From Sphagnum compactum (Eukaryota): a stretch of 64,000 nucleotides of DNA. The stretch covers positions 20,140,213 to 20,204,212 of the forward strand of contig OZ234493.1 in assembly GCA_965153455.1 (NCBI GenBank), read 5' to 3'. The notes beneath the pieces are model-generated. The model was not told the origin of the DNA and did no database searches. It was given only the letters and a program-made list of their open reading frames with translations. Shown piece by piece: positions 18,179 through 60,410 of the stretch. Positions within the stretch are counted from its first letter, which is position 1. Every line of letters begins with the position of its first letter. The translations under genes were made by a program, and so were the position numbers.

Positions 18179-18877
18179 AAGTGTTGGGCTGTGCTTTCTA
18201 AGAGAACCTCTGGTCTTGGTTTTGACACTAAAGTTGTTTTTTTTAGGTAGGTTCTTCTAATGTAGATTTGAGCTTTGAGCTTGGTTTTGCAAATTTTTTG
18301 ATCTTGCCGTTTCAGTTTTGGCACATTTTTTCCAAATTGAAGAACCTCCTCCCCTAGTTCAAAAATGACGTCTGGTTTCATGTACACATTCCCCAAGATT
18401 GGATATTGTATAAGTATGGAGTTTTACAACAAATTGAAATTGAGATTGACTGTATAAGTACGGAGTTTTACAACAAATTGAAATTGAGGTTGATTGTATA
18501 AGTACAAAGTTTTAAAACAAATTGACATTGAGCTTGATTGTATAAGTACAGAGTTTTACAATAAATTGAAGTTGGGGTCGATCGTATAAGTAAGAAATTT
18601 TACAACTAATTAAAACCAATCACTTATCTCTAAAGTTCAACTTACTTGTCAACTTTTGAAAAATGTTCAGCTTCAACGTACCTAAAGAACCTAAACCTAT
18701 GTTCAATGTATATTTTTATCAAGGTTCCAATTCTGATTTTGGTTCTAACAAATGTGAGTTCCACAATCTGGTTCTTGTGCCAGTTCCACCAAAAGGGTTC
18801 CAGTTTATGTCCAAGTCACAAGAACCTGAACCCTCAAGTTTAAGACTCCAAACCGGGGTACGCACCTGCCAACACTA
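18179..18877. mobile_element. hAT-like MITE with AGTGTTGG termini
   Basis: The left end is AAGTGTTGGGC and the right end GCCAACACTA. This is the same terminal motif as the hAT element at 56809. No TSD is recognisable. Confidence 0.55.
18407..18612. repeat. 44-bp tandem repeat, ~4.7 copies
   Basis: Units of TGTATAAGTAnnGAGTTTTACAACAAATTGAAATTGAGnTTGAn start at 18407, 18451, 18495, 18539 and 18583. Confidence 0.95.
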
Positions 18878-25077: not shown

Positions 25078-26823
25078 CACTACTACAAATCCTGGTTGTT
25101 TAAGAATTTCAAGTTGACTAATTTGTCATTTTGATTAATAGACATGTCTTAAGAAAACACTTATTGTAAAATTTGGGATCTACATGTGGACCAAATAACC
25201 ATTTTAAAGGGGGGTATTAAATAATTGTTCAACCTAATTTTTTATCACCCTATTATTATCTAATTTTTTTTAAATATACACATTAAAGCCACTTTATATT
25301 AATTATAATCCATTATTTCAAACTATTACATACCTTATATTATAATTAAATTGATTATTTGAATAAAATGTACCCAATTTTTAACTAATTAACTTATAAT
25401 TTTTAACCAACATCCAATATATTGCACCTTATATTATTATTCATGTAATTTTTAATTTTTTAAACTATTGTCCACCCAGGGGACATGTACATTTTGATTA
25501 AACGCCAAGGGTTTAAATGACACATGTATTATTTGCCTAATCAACTTGATTATAATGTTTAATTTGATTAGATACATATAGTCAAGTTGTACAACCTTAA
25601 TTAAAATTGTCAATGGTCTTTCGTCAAGTTGAACATTTAATCAAAATCGTTAATGATTTTTAGTCAGAATGACCAATGGTCCTTTAGTCAAATTAAACAT
25701 TTAATCAAGATGGCCAATGATATTTAAATAGAATGATCAATGGTCATTAGTCAAGTGGAAACATTTAATCAAGATGGCCAATAATCTTTAATCAAATGTG
25801 ACATAATCTATTACCTTATGTATCTATCTTTACCTACTCACCCACCCATTTACCTAGCTAATTACTTACCTACTTATTACCCACCCACCCACCTACCTAC
25901 TACTTACCTACCTACCTATCTACCTATACCCTTTCACCTATCTACTTACCTACCCACCTACATGCATATTACCTACATCATACCTATCCACCCATTTACC
26001 TACCTAAGTTTTGCCATTAGGTGTAACCATTATATTTAGCCATTATATTTAACCATTAAATTTAGCCATTAGATTTACCCAAGTTTTAACCAAATTTTAG
26101 CCATTAAATTTAACTTAAATTTAACCACTAGATTCAAGCATTATGTTTAGCCACTAGATTTGGCACTATTTAGTTTAAATTGAACCATTAGATTTGGCCA
26201 CTAGGTATAGCTTAAATTTAACCATTAAGTATGTCAAATTAGGTTGGGCCAAGGTTTAACCACTATGTTAAACATTAGATTTACCCACTAAATTTAAGTT
26301 TAACCATTATGTTTAACCATTAAATTTAGTCACTAAGTTTAATAAATATGTTTAGCCAAGGTTTAATCATTATGTTTAACCAATTTAACCATTATGTATC
26401 TAGCCAAGGTTTAATCATTTTGTTTAACCATTAGATTTAGACATTAGGTTTAACAACAACTTAACCAAAATTTATCTATGAAGTTTAACCATTAGGTTTA
26501 GCCCAAGTTTAGTAATTATGTTTAACTATTACATTTAATCACTAGGTTTAGCCAAATTTTAGCCATGAAATTTTGCCATTAAGTTTATCAATTAAGTGTA
26601 ACCATTAGATTTAATCACTAAGTTTAGCCAAGGTTTAAACATTAAGTTTAAACATTAAATTTAAGCATTATATTAACCCACTAAATGTAGCCACTTCATC
26701 TAGCCATTATACCAAAAGGATGAATGTTCAATCCATTGTGGACTTTACAAAGCATGGTACATCCAATGTCATAGTCCAAACTACCCAAAAAAAACTATCA
26801 TTACAGACTTTTTTCTTCTAGTG
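25078..26823. mobile_element. Non-autonomous CACTA element
   Basis: It begins CACTACTACAAAT and ends TTCTTCTAGTG. It has subterminal TAGTCAAG/AATGG arrays, an (ACCT)n-like tract at ~25815-26010 and a TTAACCATTA-type array at ~26010-26710. The 5' part is homologous to the copy at 55401. Only a 2-bp AA flank matches, so pairing of the two ends is uncertain. Confidence 0.6.
25146..25482 (+). mobile_element. MITE with 4-bp TSD (ACAT), inserted in the CACTA element
   Basis: It is homologous over its full length to the reverse complement of 30031-30325. It is flanked by ACAT at 25142-25145 and 25483-25486. The paralogous CACTA copy at ~55467-55487 shows the empty site TAATAG-ACAT-GTCCATTTTGA. Confidence 0.8.
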
Positions 26824-44538: not shown

Positions 44539-47127
44539 ATGTGGATGCAGCAGGGACTACAAGCTTGTGTGTTGCGTGGAAGGGTATGGGAATCTCTGGG
44601 CAAGTGCTATCTCACCACATGCAGAGCTGTAATTCTTCCCCGCTTTGGAGGCCCTGAGGTGAGATATATTAATCCTTTTACAATCCCACATTCTTTCCAG
44701 ATTCAAGCAGATGGAGGCAGCCATGTTGAATGATGGTTAGGGAACCAGAAGGATTTGATTGTTGCTCTACCTGACTACTACCGATTGCTGGACATAGGTC
44801 TTGGAAGTGCGGGAAGTTGTGGCTCTGCCAGAGTTGGGAGCATCAGAAGTCTTGGTACGCACACATGCAATAGGAGTCAATCCTCTTGATCTACGGGTAA
44901 GCATGCATTTTATGTTTTCTGGTTCTTTTGTGATTCCATCCTCGCTGTTGTTTGTTTATACCTGTGGGATTGCATTTTGTTCATGAGCATGCATGCAATG
45001 GTAGCAGCAGTGAGTGGTCGGTGCTCCTTGTTCTTTCTAGCTGGAAGCACAGGTCTCTCTGTGCTTCTGTCTTTGTGCAAATGGTTACTTCTCTTACTTC
45101 TCATGCCATTGACAAGCTTTCTTCCAGATGTTGTAGTTGTAGTTGTTACACTGACCAGTAGAGTAGAGTCATCCCTGAGAAAGTTGTAAGATGGATGCAG
45201 ATGCGAGGAGGTTATGGACGCTCATTGTTTGAGCCTCTGTTGCCACTAGTGATCGGAAGGGATGTGAGTGGTGAGGTGATGCAGTTGGGAAGCTCTGTTC
45301 AGCATCTTCAAATAGGGCAACAGGTGTTTGGAGCTCTGCAGCCAACAGCAACACAGGGAACATATAGCAACTACGCCATCCTCAATGAGGAACAACTGGC
45401 TCAGAAGCCTGACAATGTCTCACACATCGTGTGATTGCCTGCCACTGCCCATCACAAATACTCTGTCTTTTTTTCTGTTCTTGAACTCCTGCTCTGGGAT
45501 ACCTGTGCTGTGCATACTTTGCTTCCAAACTAAGTTGCTCCTTGATGAAATATGGCAGGAAGCTGCCGCAATCCCATTTGCTGCATTAACTGCATGGCGG
45601 GCATTGAGGAGTACTGCACAGATCAAGAAAGGGTAAAAGGACATTTGCAACTCTGCAATCACAAGGATTCCTCTACCATGTTTCTTGTCTATGTGTACTC
45701 TTTTTGTACTCAGCCCTAATCAGTCCAGACATGACATACTTAACAACATGAGTGAGTGCAATTATCTTTTGTACATATGAAGAGTGAACATAACCAAGAT
45801 TTGCAGCATCTCTCTTGGTGCAACAGGCAGAAGGTTCTTGTGATGGGAGGTGGTGGAGCTGTTGGACTTTCAGCCATCCAACTAGCACGAAGTGCAGAAT
45901 GCTATGTAGCATGCACTTGTGGCAAACGAAGCATGGAGCGTGTAAAGGAGGCAGGTGCTGAGGAGGCCATTGACTACACCACCCCGGTAACTTGACCCCC
46001 CTTCATCTCCATTAAGTCACCAGTTTAGGGCTGAAGTTATAAGGTTAGTTTTAGCCTCCCTGTTTGTGGGTGCAAGTGCCATATTTATCAAGCAGTTTCT
46101 GCAATGTTCCATGTTGCCTCTTGTCTGCATTGGTAATGGTTTTTGCACTTGCACTTCTCTCTTGCTTTCTGTTGTGCTTTTCTCGTCATTTTTTCTTTTG
46201 GCTTGCCATCAACAGATTCATGTTTGTTTTGCTGATAGAACATCAACTTGCAATTCAAGGACCGTTTTGATGTGGTTTTGGATACAATTGGGCTACCTGA
46301 GACTGAAGCTGCAGGCACTAAACTTCTGCAAAGAGGCGGACACTACCTTACCCTCCAGGTGTGCACATGAATACTCTAAGAACTGAAACCTTATAACCAT
46401 AAGTGCTGGCCCTGTTTCTCTCTCCACTCTGAGGGCCCCAAGTCTGAATCAGGAATTTTGATTTTTCCCTTTCAGAACTTCAAGACACAGTCAAGTTCCA
46501 TTGTGCAATGGCAGAGTTTGTTGCCTATGAATGAAGTCGTTTTCTTCAGAGATATTATCTCTGTTTTTCTGTTGTAGTTCTCCAGCAGTTTATGGTGTGC
46601 TCTCACAGTGCTGTATGGATCCAGGGTGAGACTGTGGCTTTGGCAGATGCGTATGGCCTAGTGGCAGGTGGAGCTGCAGCAGCAGCTGTGCTGTTCAGGA
46701 AGCAAGTGCAGTATCGGCAACAGTATGGAATTGGTGAGTTTTTCCATCACATTAGGATTGCAGAAAGATAGTCTCAGTTTGTCAACTCAGCTTCTTTCTT
46801 ATGCACCTCTGGCTTTTTGGATTATTGGGTTTAACCATTTTCCAGTTATAGTGTCCCCCTAACTTAACTTTATTTCTTGCAATCAAGCAACTGTGATGTT
46901 CTCAGTGTGTTGGTGGCATTGTAGACTACTGGTGGACAATTATGAGGACAGATGCAGAAGCATTGGAAGAAATAGCAAGGCTTATAAAGAATGGACAGCT
47001 TAGAGTACCTGTTGGGCACATACTTCCATTGGAAGAGGCTGCAGAGGCTCATAGGGTGATTGAAGGAAAGAAAGCACATGGCAAAGTTGTCTTAGAAGTC
47101 AAAGACAGAGTTGCAACACCAAGTTGA
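44539..47127 (+). CDS. RTN4IP1: Reticulon-4-interacting protein 1-like NAD(P)H quinone oxidoreductase (MDR superfamily), probably mitochondrial; 8 exons, 370 aa
   Basis: Exons 44539-44658, 44798-44896, 45201-45428, 45559-45632, 45827-45986, 46239-46358, 46625-46733 and 46925-47127 are all GT-AG and phase-consistent (1113 nt). Motifs: RAVILPRFGGPEVL, VNPLDLRMRGGYGRSLFEPLLPLVIGRDVSGEV, EAAAIPFAALTAWRAL, VLVMGGGGAVG (Rossmann), FDVVLDTIG, AHGKVVL. The choice of start codon is less certain. Confidence 0.93.
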
Positions 47128-49067
47128 AGCTTTGTCAGAGGTGGAGAACAGAGAAGGCAGGAGATGTTACTGTCACCAATTCTTTTGAGGTCTGCTTCAT
47201 CTACACTTGGACATGGGATCTCCTCTGAATCAAGTGCTGTACAGCGTCACTTGGTTAAGACTTCACTTCTCCACGGCAGGCTAGAGAGCAGAGCAAAATT
47301 CCTTTCCACATATGCTCCATATGGTGGTGAGGCGTAGAAGGTAGGGAGTTGTAAGTACTTGCACAGAGACTGCAATAACAAGGGACTATTATTGTCTGGA
47401 CATTGCAATGAGAAAGTCAAAGAGAAACTTGAGAGGAGGGAAGGAGCAGCATCCAACATGTGTATCAGAGGAACAACCACCTCCTCCCCCCTGTTTTATG
47501 AACATGAGCTAGCTAGATGAAACACATGGTAGATTCTAAAGCTTGGTGATATGGTAAGGAGAATGTTAAACATGCCAAGGGTTTTGAATGTTATTAGTAC
47601 GAAAGGACTACCCAACATCACCATGACATCATCCTTCCCCTCGCCCTCGTAACTTCCAAGTCCTCTGTTTGCCTTGGTCTTTTATCTTGATACAATAGCA
47701 TTGATCTTTGGCCATTTCTCTTGAGTCCTCCTAGCATGTGTCATAACTTACTCTTCCCAAAGCTGCTTCTGAAAATGCATCAGAGAATCAGGATGCTCAT
47801 GTTTGTATACTAGTGTGCCTGAAATTTTGGGTGGAGTATCAAATAATTATCTCTACCCATCTTTCGACAATCACTGATGAAGTCAGTGGGGGAGTCATGG
47901 CTGCTTATCACCACCGTTCATGATGAACAAGGTGCTGGGGTCCGAAGGTGTGGTCCAACACTTGGTGAGCAACTCTCATAAGTAAATTACCACACTTATT
48001 ATTATTGTGTTGCCTTCCAAGGTGTTGTTTGGTGGAGTTTTCTCTGTGCTCTCATAGATATGATCTTCAATCAGGAGATGAAGGGATCCATGTGGGCAGC
48101 AGCCAACCAGTAAATATTGGCATGATGTTTGGTTAAACCCCTGAATTGTAGGACTTTTTTTGTTTCAGAACAAGAAGCATGAGAGAGAGAGGAGGGGGGA
48201 GAGCATGTGTTGGAAAAAGGTTGCTAATCTCTTGGCATCTCTGTGTTGCTCCCTTGCCATCTCATCCATTTCCCATCTGGATCTGAGCCCTGGAAGCGTC
48301 ACCTTCTTCTCTCTCTTCTCTCTTCCTCCCCCACACAAACACACTAGTGCCGCCACAGCTCCTTATATTGTAAACATTGCAGCTCTCCCTCTCTCCTCAT
48401 CATCCTCTTCCGCCCATCAAGTATTATTATTCAAAGCTTGTTCAATCCTCTGTTTCTGAATCCAAAATTTGCTTATTGCTTGCTGTTCTGGTAAATTTTT
48501 GCCTCAAATTGTGCCAAGCAATGATGGATCTTGCAACTGTTGTTAATTTGAGTTTTTCAGTTGCAATCAGGCACTTGTGAGCATTTCATTTTCAAGTGGG
48601 TTTAGATTGGTTTCTGAGGATTGAATTTGCTTTCTTTCATCTTGCACTAGAAGAAGAAGAAGAAGAAGCAGAACAGCAGCAGAAGAAAGGTTAGCATCCT
48701 CTCTTCTAGGGTCTTGGTTTGCAAAGAAGACTATGAAGATGAAGGAGGCTTGGTTCCGTAGCTCTTCAAACCTGGAAGAAATGGTAATGTTAGCTGGTCT
48801 CTTGGATCAAAAGTGTGCCACTTGAATGTTCTTCTTTTCTTCCCCCTTTGCCATCTCGGAAGCCTCTCTCTCTATATCCCCTCTTGCAAGCACCATCTTC
48901 TTCTCTCCTTCTTCCCTTACTAGTGTGCCACAGCTCTGGCTGCTTTACAGCAGCTCTTTCTGGATGCAATCAGCTCCTCCATGAAGAAGAATTCAAGCAC
49001 CTAGTATTCGTTCACTTTACCTGCGGATCCTTCTTATCTGCCATTTCAAGTTGCAGCAGCAGCAGCA

Positions 49068-52000
49068 ATGGATATATGCAACGATAATCCAGGACCAGGG
49101 GCATACACACCCCAACAGAATTCCATCGGGACGCAAGCACCTATCTACTCAATCGGCGCAAGATTGAGATCCAACATGAGAGAGGATCAGCCAGGTCCAG
49201 GCACTTACAATCCGCGTCACAGCGACCACGGCCCAGCTTACTCCATTCCAGGCCGCGGCGATAAGAGACTCGGCAGCGACAATCCAGGACCAGGCACCTA
49301 CTCAGCGAGCACGGAATTCACCAAAAACGCTCCACCTTGCTACAGCATTGCGGGGCGCTTGGTGAACCGAGCGCTGGACAAGAATCCGGGTCCAGGGGCG
49401 TACAATCCCAGGGTGAGAAGCGCTGCACCGGCTTATAGTCTGGCTGCCAGAGGACGCGACTTGGCAGCAAGCAAGACGCCAGGTCCCGGCACCTACAACA
49501 ACATGACGCCCTCGGGTGCGCCTGCTTACAGCTTGGCCATGCGCACCAAGGAATCACAGAGCCAAGACTCACCAGGACCTGGTGCCTATGATCCCAGCGT
49601 GCATTCCTGTGTACCGGCTTACAGCCTCGCCAAGCGCCTCGACCCCGCCCACCTCCCCAACAATCCAGGTCTGCTCTGCGCTCCTCTGCTCTGCGTGGGC
49701 TTTCCTTCCTTATCTCTTTTCCCTGTTCCCTCGCTCGTCTGGGCTATCGTTTTGCCTTTCTTCCACACACCACGAAATCTGCTGCAACAATAATCTTATG
49801 TGTTCTTTTCTGTCTGTCTGTCTGTCTGTTTCTTTTCTTTTTGCAGCGAGAATGCAACTGAGATTCTCGTTGTAATTCTCTTGCAATTTTCGTTGTTCCA
49901 GTAAAGGTTTTGAGAAATTGTTGGAGAAAGTATGTACAATTTGCTGTTGTTTTTCTCCTTCTGCTCAGATACATCAAAGTAGTCGTGTCAATGGCATAGG
50001 TATCTAGAGATCTGTCTATCGTTTTCTTTCCATCTGTAGTTCCTCAATTCTGTACTGAGAATCATCAAAGTACTACCAGTAGCATTGGTGTCTGTAGACT
50101 GTAACATTTGTTTGTTTGTTTGTTGCATTCAATTTTCTTCCAGACTCCAAAGTGCAAATGAAGTATAGAAAGTTTATTGTAGGGAGGGGGATGGGAAGAA
50201 GCTCATTGTGAAATGTGGTGTGTGAGTTTTCTCTTGAAGACAAAATATTCTCCGGTAGCAATGTTGAAGAAATCCCAGGAAGATCTGATATTTTAGTAGG
50301 AGAGAGTCCATCCTTGCTTGTGGAATTCAACAAAAGAAATCCCAGGAAGAAATATATAGTTTGGTAGCAGAGATTCAATCAATCCTTCAGAAAGCAAACC
50401 TCCAAGCCAATTCAGATCATCATGGGAGTTCAAGATTTCTGTGTTTCCAGGAGCTTTTTTCTGCTCATCTCCTTCTGAAATTAGAGAGTTACTTTGCCCA
50501 TCTGTGTAGCTTAGCTAACTGGTTACAGGTGTTCATACAACATTTGCACAGCTGCGGATTGCCTTTGTTTGTCAAAATCACCCATTATTCATGCAGATTA
50601 TTGCAGTAATAATAATCATGTTTTTTCTTGAATCTAGATTCAAACCTTCAAGAAAATTCAAGGACAAGGCTTTTTGCTTTTCTATAGAAATCCATAGACA
50701 TCTCCACATTGAAACTTTGCAATAGTTATTGATGAAACTTTGTGGACCACTTGATTGATTCAGGTCCAGGAACTTACAACATGAGCAAAAGTGAGCGAGG
50801 CCCTGCTTATAGCATCAGTGCACGGATGCAAGACAAGACGAGTTATATTGGTCCAGGACCTGGAGAGTATGACCCAAATGCAAAATCTGGAGCACCTGCT
50901 TACAGTATCGCTGGGAGGTTAATCAACCCTTTGGCCACAGATTACCCTGGACCTGGAACTTATGATCCAAGTCAAAGACCTGGAAGTCCTTGCTACAGCC
51001 TGGCAGCTCGCTTAGCCTACAAAGCACTAGATAAAAACCCAGGGCCAGGGGCATATAATCCCAAGATCAAGTCAGGTGCACCAGCTTACAGTTTGACAGG
51101 GCGAGCACATGGATTGGCAGGAGACAAAAACCCTGGACCTGGCACATATAACCCAGATGTGCATTCTTGTGTGCCAGCTTACAGTATTGCACTCCGATTT
51201 GATCACTTCAAGATAAATGACAATCCGGGGCCTGGAGCTTACAGCCCTGATAACAGAATGCAAGGCCCTGCTTTTTCCATTCGAGGTGCTCTACCTTGTG
51301 CAAAAGGTGATCAGTACCCTGGTCCAGGAGCTTATGACCCAGAAGTTCACTCATGTCAACCAGCATATTCTTTAGCAGCAAGGTTGCCTGGGCGTAGTAC
51401 TGATGATCAGCCAGGTCCAGGAACTTATGATTTGAAGCCGACATTTAGTGGGCCTTGTTTCTCCATTCCTGGAAGAGGTAAAGGCTTGCCTGATCAAGGT
51501 ATGCCTGGGCCTGGAACATACAACCCGGAGGTGCACTCATGTGTACCAGCTTATTCTCTTGCTGCTAGGCTTGAACCCCATGCAGGCGAAAAAACTCCTG
51601 GTCCAGGAGCATACCAACCTAATGTGAAATCTGGAGCTCCATGCTATTCACTTGCTGCACGGGCAAATGACCACAAACTTGATCAAACTCCTGGACCTGG
51701 GACATATAATCCTGATGTGCACAACTGTGTACCAGCTTACTCTCTTGCTGCTAGGCTCAATTCAGCACCCTCTGATAGAGGCCCAGGCCCAGGGACTTAT
51801 GACATGAAGGCATCAACTGGAGAGGGCCCTGCATACAGTTTAGCAAAGAGGTTGAACATTTGTCACAATGAGGGACAACCTGGTCCTGGGGCATACTCAC
51901 CGAACACAGGCTCGGGTGCCCCAGCCTACAGCATTGCAGCTCATCTCAGGCAGGGACAAAGCTTCATTGGTCCTGGTCCTGGTGAGTATGAACCAAATGT

Positions 52001-52448
52001 GAAGTCTGCAGCACCCGCATACACTCTTGCTAAACGAGGCATTGGGCCTCCTGGGAATGATTACCCAGGGCCTGGCACATATACACCTGGCTATGGTAAA
52101 GATGGTCCTGCATATACCTTAGCAGCACGCAATGATCTTGCTTTCCCAAATAAGAATCCAGGACCTGGGACATATACCCCAAAGATTAAATCTGGTGCTC
52201 CAGTTTACAGCTTGGCTGCACGAGCAGGTCCAGGCCATAGTGAAAATACACCAGGGCCAGGCACTTATCAGTTACCCATTGAAAAGATGGTTGCATACTC
52301 CATTGCAGGCAGGTTTCCTGAGTCAAGGTCTGACATGACACCTGGACCAGGTGAGTACAATGTGAAGAGCAAGAGATCAGGGCCTGCTTACACTATCCTT
52401 GGGAGGCATCCTCGACGCTGTCAAAGACAAAAACCTCTAAAGGCCTAG
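49068..52448 (+). CDS. SHIPPO-repeat (ODF3/CIMAP-like, sperm-tail PG-rich repeat) protein; 2 exons, 761 aa, 24 PGPGxY repeats
   Basis: Exon 1 is 49068-49668 (CCAG|GTCTG) and exon 2 is 50764-52448 (TTCAG|GTCCAGGA). The phase-1 junction restores a PGPGTY repeat. The frame is 2286 nt and open. The unit is ~31 aa, xPGPG[ATE]Y-x8-P[AC][YF]S[LI]xxR-x8, matching the SHIPPO repeat. Confidence 0.92.
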
Positions 52449-59530: not shown

Positions 59531-60111
59531 TTAAGGTATGTTATAGGACCTAGGAAAAGGAACCAAATAGGTATATGTAGTAGTTTCGACAAGTTTCAAT
59601 TTCTGCTAACAATCTATGCAATCAAAAACATTTACAAACAAGATAATTTATTTTTCATAATGTAAATTATTGCAAGTGTGATTATGAAAATAAAAAATAT
59701 ATTTTTAAAGGTTCCATAGTGGAGAATTGCACTTTGCATTGAAAAAACTAGCAGCTACAAAATCTTGCCAAAACAAAAGCATAAAAGAAATAAAAAAATT
59801 CAAGGCCAAAAAATCAACAACTAAAAGAAGGAAAGAAAAAAAAAGAAAAGGGTTTAGAGAAACATACCTTATGAATGTGAAGATTTCAAAACATGTTTGA
59901 TATAGGAACTCTAAACATATAAAAACAGCAACAACTACACATAAACATGGATCAAATTTGAAAAATACAAAACAAAAACAAAAACAAAATCAAATTGAAA
60001 TGAAAAAGGTTAGAAAGTTACTTTGGATTTAGATGTAGTGGCTCCACTAGTACCAGCTCGACTAGCAACAACAACTCCCACTAGCAACTCTGAAAGTAGC
60101 AGGGAAAGCCA

Positions 60112-60410
60112 AAGAGCAAGAACACATAAAGTGAGGAATGTTGAAAGCAAAAGCACATAGAGTGAGGAACACCCATAGCAAGAGCACATAGAGTGAGGAA
60201 TGTCCAAAGCAAAAGGACACAAAGCAAGGATCACCAAGAGCAAGAGGTCACAAAACGAGGAGCGCTTAGAGCAAGAGCACAAATAGTGAGGAGTGCCTAA
60301 AACAAGAGCACATAGAACAGGAGCGCCCAAAGCCATAGCACATAGAGCGAGAACACACAAAATGAACAACATCAAGAGCAAGAGCACATAGAGAGAGGAG
60401 TGCCCAAAAG
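60112..60410. repeat. ~31-bp imperfect tandem array near the hAT 5' end
   Basis: Repeated AGCAAGAGCACATAGAGTGAGGA-like units, about 9-10 copies. Confidence 0.85.

Follow-up and report, generated by a model that had tools for sequence, protein, structure and literature searches.

A 24-repeat SHIPPO gene in Sphagnum compactum

The window analysed here, a stretch of 64,000 nucleotides from contig OZ234493.1 of Sphagnum compactum, harbors a two-exon gene on the plus strand, with the ATG at 49068 and the stop codon within exon 2, whose product has 761 amino acids (Table 1). In the spliced translation, the PGPGxY motif is exact in all 24 repeats, and the motifs are spaced by 30-34 amino acids, with a spacing of 31 in 19 of the 23 gaps. 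A paralogue from this genome matches named Sphagnum proteins, and the RNA data sets that contain the gene are moss or plant metagenomes. Both exons match the Pfam family SHIPPO-rpt (PF07004) far above its curated cut-off of 20 (219.2 bits for exon 2, 101.5 bits for exon 1), and the scan of both exons returned neither another domain nor a coiled coil. Furthermore, the protein matches solved ODF3 chains (8snb_5A, E 6.8e-12; 8snb_1a, E 6e-9; 9e5c_0r, E 8.8e-7), and the matched chains occur in PDB entry 8snb as 13 and 4 copies. By sequence, then, the moss protein is a member of the SHIPPO/ODF3/CIMAP1 microtubule-associated proteins (MAPs) with PG-rich repeats. An AlphaFold model of repeats 7-16, computed from the single sequence without an alignment, contained no helix of four or more residues at a mean pLDDT of 35.6, a value that both an extended chain and the missing alignment would fit.

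The joint between the two exons was found in two of three RNA runs, in one read of X24 and in one contig of X15, and the transcript is present at low depth in all three. Sphagnum sperm are flagellated. Five metagenome loci that are approximately 99% identical to the gene, and that represent three distinct sequences, all keep the splice donor, the acceptor, the length of 761 amino acids and the 24 motifs, and pN/pS across these related loci is 0.15-0.20. The SHIPPO gene at 49068-52448 is genuine and under purifying selection, and a wrong gene model is ruled out as the source of the periodicity described below, because the splice joint is seen in RNA and is conserved in related loci.

Table 1. 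Features of the SHIPPO locus and its surroundings, in window positions
Feature	Position	Strand	Description
Exon 1	49068..49668	+	Start codon and leader of 7 aa, followed by repeats 1-6 plus the initial 4 bases of repeat 7; GC3 0.5-0.7
Intron	49669..50763	+	GT..AG, phase 1, 1095 bases; interrupts the initial PG of repeat 7, where repeats 6 and 7 meet
Exon 2	50764..52448	+	Repeats 7-24, basic C-terminus, stop codon
Repeats 1-12 (first half)	49089..51317	+	Intron included; repeats 1-4 match types A-D of 6-repeat orthologues, in the order A-B-C-D
Repeats 13-24 (second half)	51318..52445	+	Repeat 24 is of the terminal F type
Repeat 6	49572..49664	+	Fifth HSCVP-type repeat
Repeats 7-10	49665..51131	+	Best-kept lag-12 block; scores 45, 73, 37 and 65 against repeats 19-22, background 33
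Repeats 11-17	51132..51782	+	HSCVP-type (E) repeats alternate: 11, 13, 15, 17
Repeats 19-22	51879..52250	+	Partner block of repeats 7-10
Upstream gene	46897..47127	+	Last exon of a zinc-binding dehydrogenase-family gene (PF13602)
Tandem array	18405..18615		44 bases
Tandem array	25579..26670		13-76 bases
Tandem array	60109..60362		31 bases

Several side observations concern the transcription and composition of the region. RNA contigs run across the donor site in unspliced form and into the early intron (49642-50441), at a depth of 7.5 in X15 versus 15 for spliced sequence, and the intron coverage in X15 drops to zero by 50454. Intron retention or early termination would yield a product with 6 repeats, but pre-mRNA or DNA explains the coverage as well. 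A short 6-repeat isoform made by read-through into the intron was considered and rejected: its length ranges from 236 to 276 amino acids among relatives and run X12 carries a 1-base deletion, so that this product is not conserved as a protein. Along the coding sequence, GC3 falls from its exon 1 level in repeats 1-6 to mostly 0.2-0.5 beyond the intron, a 5′ GC gradient. Just 5′ of the gene, at 48200-48500, RNA depth is higher (95 in X15), and the X24 first mates, few in number, lie there on the strand opposite to that of the first mates from the gene, possibly reflecting a divergent or antisense transcript. A link between the SHIPPO gene and the dehydrogenase-family gene upstream is not evident.

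An old 12-repeat register and younger local copying

The initial annotation had proposed that distinctive repeat variants recur 12 repeats apart. When the repeats were compared with a shuffled repeat order, lag 12 stood out with z 3.29 (p 0.0008), and it kept a family-wise p of 0.021 upon correction for all lags and of 0.029 after double-centring. Mean identity at lag 12 is 50%, as compared to 44% over all repeat pairs. The signal is carried by the last 8 residues of the linker (z 3.3) and the repeat core (z 2.4) rather than by the repeat heads (z 1.0). The super-periodicity thus beats the shuffles, but it is weak: the pairs 3/15, 5/17, 11/23 and 12/24 are at background, 8/20 is the only mutual best match at this lag, and the linkers of the two halves agree on average in fewer than two of eight residues. 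The lag-12 pattern is real, though modest and patchy. The motif pairs that had been quoted in its favor are all present at the repeats named, with two adjustments. The matches 8/20 and 9/21 had been listed separately, but the end of the former and the start of the latter are one and the same junction, and repeats 8 and 20, which do not fit a 6-repeat register, belong to the class shared by repeats 4, 10, 16 and 22 as well.

Synonymous third positions show no trace of lag 12 (identity 0.30 versus 0.36). This rules out a recent doubling, and the duplication behind the lag-12 pattern is therefore old.

A further class of repeats, which had been overlooked initially, is the HSCVP type at repeats 6, 11, 13, 15 and 17. 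It gives rise to a lag-2 signal (p 0.008) and contains the top-scoring protein pairs. Repeats 15 and 17 are the closest pair at the DNA level, with 70% nucleotide identity and a synonymous identity of 0.8, and for this reason the local copying of HSCVP repeats is younger than the doubling. It is overlaid on the 12-register without having shifted it.

Six-repeat orthologues and a probable, faint 6-register

A homologue search identified two compact 6-repeat proteins, P0148 and P0236, that are 46-47% identical to exon 1. The six repeat types A-F of 6-repeat orthologues thus provided an outside reference for typing the repeats of the moss protein. Against five orthologues, three of which are fragments, 11 of the 24 repeats are in 6-phase. 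The typing was done in nine variants, using three reference sets and whole repeats, heads or tails, and all are given here. For repeats 5-23, the five orthologues gave p 0.009 for the whole repeat, 0.18 for heads and 0.015 for tails, and P0148 and P0236 alone gave p 0.006. The paralogues L016 and L018 from the same genome gave no signal (p 0.72 whole, 0.92 heads, 0.35 tails), and pooling all references resulted in p 0.036, 0.32 and 0.016, respectively.

A sub-period of 6 repeats had also been suggested initially. Self-comparison of the 24 repeats does not bear it out, since lag 6 is nominally at p 0.04-0.05 but at 0.53 family-wise, whereas typing against the 6-repeat orthologues (p 0.006-0.009) speaks in its favor. 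As judged from these sequence comparisons, a 6-register is probably present, but it is faint and reference-dependent. The position of the intron at the border of repeats 6 and 7 carries little weight in this respect, because introns within PG codons are frequent in relatives.

Repeat counts in this genome and in other plants

Together with the 24-repeat gene, the Sphagnum genome set comprises genes with 18 repeats (L017), 6 repeats (L016, L018, L021 and L020), about 5 degenerate repeats (L027) and 4 repeats (L019), such that six of eight genes have a multiple of 6, the 6-mers sharing ancestry. L016, L018, L021 and L019 (6, 6, 6 and 4 repeats) are single-exon paralogues, and L016 and L018, which carry the basic C-terminal motif of the 24-mer, resemble a duplicate pair. 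L017 (G000:C2:27163000-27172000, minus strand) has four exons with GT..AG joints and an open frame, and its count is 17 without the first exon. The end of its first repeat resembles that of repeat 1 in the 24-repeat protein. The two proteins have no block in common, and neither L017 nor the plant 12-mers show a lag-6 signal above z 1.7.

Among moss and lycophyte relatives, the Ceratodon orthologue KAG0555657.1, Physcomitrium XP_073394418.1 and Diphasiastrum P0029 have 12 repeats each and P0148 and P0236 have 6, while none has 24. P0148, P0236 and the Ceratodon protein have the N-terminal start and repeat types in common with the moss 24-mer. However, the Ceratodon protein reaches its 12 repeats by way of units of 2 and 4 repeats (z 3.9 at lag 4), and a sister cluster of four members close to it, P0144, has 8 repeats, which is not a multiple of 6. 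With periods of 2 and 4 repeats and totals of 12 and 8, the Ceratodon-type proteins P0228, P0002 and P0144 would suit 16 or 32 nm rather than 48 nm. Two proteins with Gb_ identifiers, presumably from Ginkgo, have about 17 and 34 repeats and no 6-period. A further 24-repeat plant orthologue was not seen among the homologues, a weak negative that refers in part to 8000 scored candidates.

These counts bear on the notion, put forward in the initial annotation, that the protein is a molecular ruler. CCDC39/CCDC40 (FAP59/FAP172) is the reference for such a function: it is a coiled-coil heterodimer whose length reportedly sets the 96-nm period of the axoneme. A true ruler of this kind would set or transmit the 48/96-nm period and position complexes via position-specific linkers. 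The moss protein resembles CCDC39/CCDC40 in that it would form a long filament on the surface of the doublet whose length is a whole multiple of 96 nm, equal to two 96-nm units if each repeat covers 8 nm, and its lag-12 signal is indeed located in the linkers. Furthermore, a possible 96-nm span is raised for the ODF3L proteins of Tetrahymena by Kubo et al. (PMC10105768), with their role in forming the periodicity given as unknown. However, the moss protein differs from the extended coiled-coil heterodimer in being Pro/Gly-rich, multi-copy and variable in length, with PF07004 as its only domain and no helix of four or more residues in the model. The genome carries at least eight paralogues, and the ODF3 chains of 8snb are present in many copies per structure. 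The low linker identity between the halves also speaks against a ruler. In addition, close orthologues have 6, 8, 12 or 24 repeats while the 96-nm repeat is general, whereas a ruler of the CCDC39/CCDC40 type would be expected to keep one length, set by the lattice period, in all species. This makes a strict ruler unlikely, and we consider this explanation very improbable. A period-setting ruler should have a fixed length, and with orthologues spanning 6-24 repeats it is more probable that the lattice comes first and the protein follows it.

Counts and periods across the family

For a family-wide census, 221 of 428 proteins were kept on the basis of a Met start, a leader of at most 45 and a tail of at most 65 amino acids, and at least 9 repeats; the other 207 were short, partial or had long flanks, and truncated gene calls may remain among those kept. 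Raw repeat counts peak at 12 (87 proteins), 18 (19) and 24 (9). After de-duplication, a count of exactly 12 is found in 44 of 106 clusters, with 11 clusters at 11 and 2 at 13, and stricter clustering gave 31/82 and 23/64. A preference of the counts for multiples of 6 or 12, as had been predicted, is thus strong at 12 and in this genome, where six of the eight genes show it, but it falls short of significance in longer proteins: above 13 repeats, multiples of 6 account for 10/39 clusters (p 0.10), or 8/32 and 7/27, with p 0.10-0.15 in the final census and 0.04-0.17 in the first.

Internal periods were tested in 185 proteins. In clusters with at least 15 repeats, lag 6 was the top lag in 14/61, followed by lag 2 (8), lag 3 (7) and lag 5 (2), with lag 7 in none and no top lag in 21; lag 6 was also on top in 10 of the 55 clusters with 12-14 repeats. 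The period is clearest in a 36-repeat protein of Stentor (z 11) and a 39-repeat protein of Hexamita (z 14). The independence of the lag-6 clusters is limited, because block comparison showed that about ten of them have one ancestral block in common. What remains is roughly four groups in addition to the plant type, and about four independent groups are too few for a test against lag 5 and lag 8, each with 2. Long members from kinetoplastids, diplonemids and chlorophytes (26-53 repeats) have neither counts in multiples of 6 nor a lag-6 period. A length class of its own is formed by the Trypanosoma members P0389, P0393, P0399 and P0191 and related proteins, with about 44-47 repeats, a spacing of 38 amino acids and a long leader. 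Across the family, the spacing has a sharp floor at 30 amino acids, with only 12 of 5332 spacings below it and a method floor of 27.

It is conceivable, though rather unlikely in our view, that the register is a neutral relic, in which doublings from 6 to 12 to 24 repeats together with gene conversion left a fading 12-register, the repeats being interchangeable tubulin grips and their number irrelevant. The signal is weak and patchy, orthologue counts range over 6, 8, 12 and 24, the lag-6 clusters are partly related, and in arrays longer than 13 repeats multiples of 6 are not significantly enriched. However, a simple neutral simulation starting from a 6-mer produced smooth counts, with 12 repeats in 8-12% of cases versus 36-42% observed, and with lags 5, 6 and 7 about equal; whole-gene concatenation was not favored in the model. 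The number 12 was reached in ciliates, in two moss lineages and in a lycophyte, once via 4-repeat units, and the amino-acid signal of the moss protein persists where the synonymous signal is lost.

A further possibility is that the protein binds singlet microtubules of the sperm cell, either of the central pair or of the multilayered-structure spline, with a period of 16/32 nm or no long period at all, and that the 12-register is inherited history. The central pair has periods of 16 and 32 nm, which the Ceratodon-type periods and counts of 8 and 12 match, and the 24-repeat protein itself contains the lag-2 class. SHIPPO proteins of Giardia are located at the ventral disc and the median body besides axonemes, and thus also on non-axonemal microtubules (10.1101/361105). 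On the other hand, doublets are where the structurally solved relatives and the 12-mers of Tetrahymena belong, and the family-wide peaks are at 6 and 12, not at 4 and 8. We therefore regard a singlet binder as distinctly improbable.

A proposed doublet protein fitted to the axonemal lattice

Axonemal doublets show periodicities of 8, 48 and 96 nm, the 96-nm repeat being general. The initial annotation had equated one repeat with 8 nm and 12 repeats with 96 nm, and work in Tetrahymena agrees with this. In STPG1A, PGPGxY motifs bind one tubulin after the next in the outer wedge, the spacers covering 8 nm each, and two ODF3L proteins have 12 motifs "or 96-nm" (Kubo et al. 2023, PMC10105768). This part of the idea is hence not new, because it is already in print. 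The moss protein shares the tandem PGPGxY motifs with these proteins, but it has 24 of them at a spacing of 31 rather than about 40 amino acids, comes from a land plant, and has a detectable internal 12-register and no evident luminal domain. Animal ODF3/SHIPPO1 (CIMAP1; 8snb, PF07004) belongs to the same repeat family and is an external doublet protein, and CIMAP1-family proteins are external and occur in all mammalian motile cilia examined (PMC11779644). However, the vertebrate proteins have 6 motifs in all three cases checked, such that the moss protein has four times as many, and the animal spacing is 36-43 amino acids as compared to 30-34 in moss.

On balance, we favor, at somewhat better than even probability, the explanation that the protein is a doublet MAP of the outer wedge that arose by expansion of a 6-repeat ancestor and is kept in step with the 48-nm lattice. 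The evidence suggests a protein sized to the 48/96-nm flagellar lattice rather than a ruler that sets it. It would be an ODF3/CIMAP1-type MAP, most likely in the Sphagnum sperm flagellum, that has no fold of its own and occupies the outer wedge between a pair of doublet protofilaments, lengthwise. By analogy with the Tetrahymena relatives, each PGPGxY motif would grip one tubulin dimer, and the 25-amino acid spacer would bridge 8 nm. The same wedge binding appears feasible in moss, since 31 residues can reach 8 nm when nearly extended, with 30 amino acids as the floor in the family; if the protein binds fully, it would span approximately 192 nm. A 6-repeat (48-nm) ancestor, which may persist in the form of the 6-repeat orthologues and paralogues, would have expanded to 24 repeats through old duplications of whole blocks, of which the 12-register is the trace, and later local copying of HSCVP repeats would have replaced some positions with the 12-register unshifted. 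Selection would then hold length and register at whole 48-nm periods, which would let the molecules be placed end to end or fill the space between fixed obstacles, and the protein would follow and stiffen the lattice without setting its period.

In favor of this explanation are the family membership and the match to solved ODF3 chains, the low pN/pS and the 24 repeats in all five related loci, the 6-repeat orthologues whose types are in phase with 11 of the 24 repeats, the repeat counts in this genome and at 12 in the family, and the spacing floor at 30 amino acids. Furthermore, the lag-12 signal exists at the protein level and is absent at synonymous sites, Ceratodon arrives at the same total of 12 by a different route, via 2- and 4-repeat units, and lag 6 exceeds lags 5 and 7 family-wide where neutral growth gives about equal numbers. 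Against it stand the 8-repeat orthologue cluster P0144, the absence of lag 6 from the 18-repeat paralogue and most plant 12-mers, the non-significant count of multiples of 6 above 13 repeats, the limited independence of the lag-6 clusters, the long kinetoplastid, diplonemid and chlorophyte members that lack both features, and the failure of the 6-register test against the protein's own paralogues and for repeat heads. Also, gene conversion would maintain a register without selection. A simple ancient doubling of a 12-repeat gene, the null explanation offered initially, agrees with the age of the duplication, for which no synonymous trace is left, but it is compatible with a lattice fit as well.

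A bolder version, to which we assign a modest chance only, is that selection has quantised MAPs with PG repeats to 6-repeat (48-nm) blocks repeatedly and independently across the eukaryotes, and that the moss protein tiles sperm doublets in the form of a single 192-nm unit composed of two position-matched 96-nm halves.

What appears to be new is the excess of 12-repeat proteins (44/106 clusters), lag 6 as the commonest super-period in long members, and the multiples of 6 in six of eight genes of this genome. In the literature covered, which included few subscription papers and no supplements, we found neither family-wide quantisation to 6 or 12, nor internal super-periods, nor plant members, nor a structure or function of a SHIPPO protein from plant sperm, although this is not proof of absence; likewise, the accessible parts of PMC10973386, PMC13406575, PMC7617938, PMC10522465 and PMC10299642 do not discuss repeat counts.

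A repeat family in which count and internal register track the 48- and 96-nm periods would offer a direct test of how proteins of the outer surface are aligned with the axonemal lattice. The natural series of orthologues with 6, 8, 12 and 24 repeats, together with a count rule, makes the question of register testable, and a rule for count or register would make it possible to tell from the sequence of a family member on which kind of microtubule it is located. If the quantised reading were true, the period of an axoneme would be readable from protein sequence alone, and a 192-nm unit in moss would be twice the canonical axonemal repeat, hidden by 96-nm averaging.
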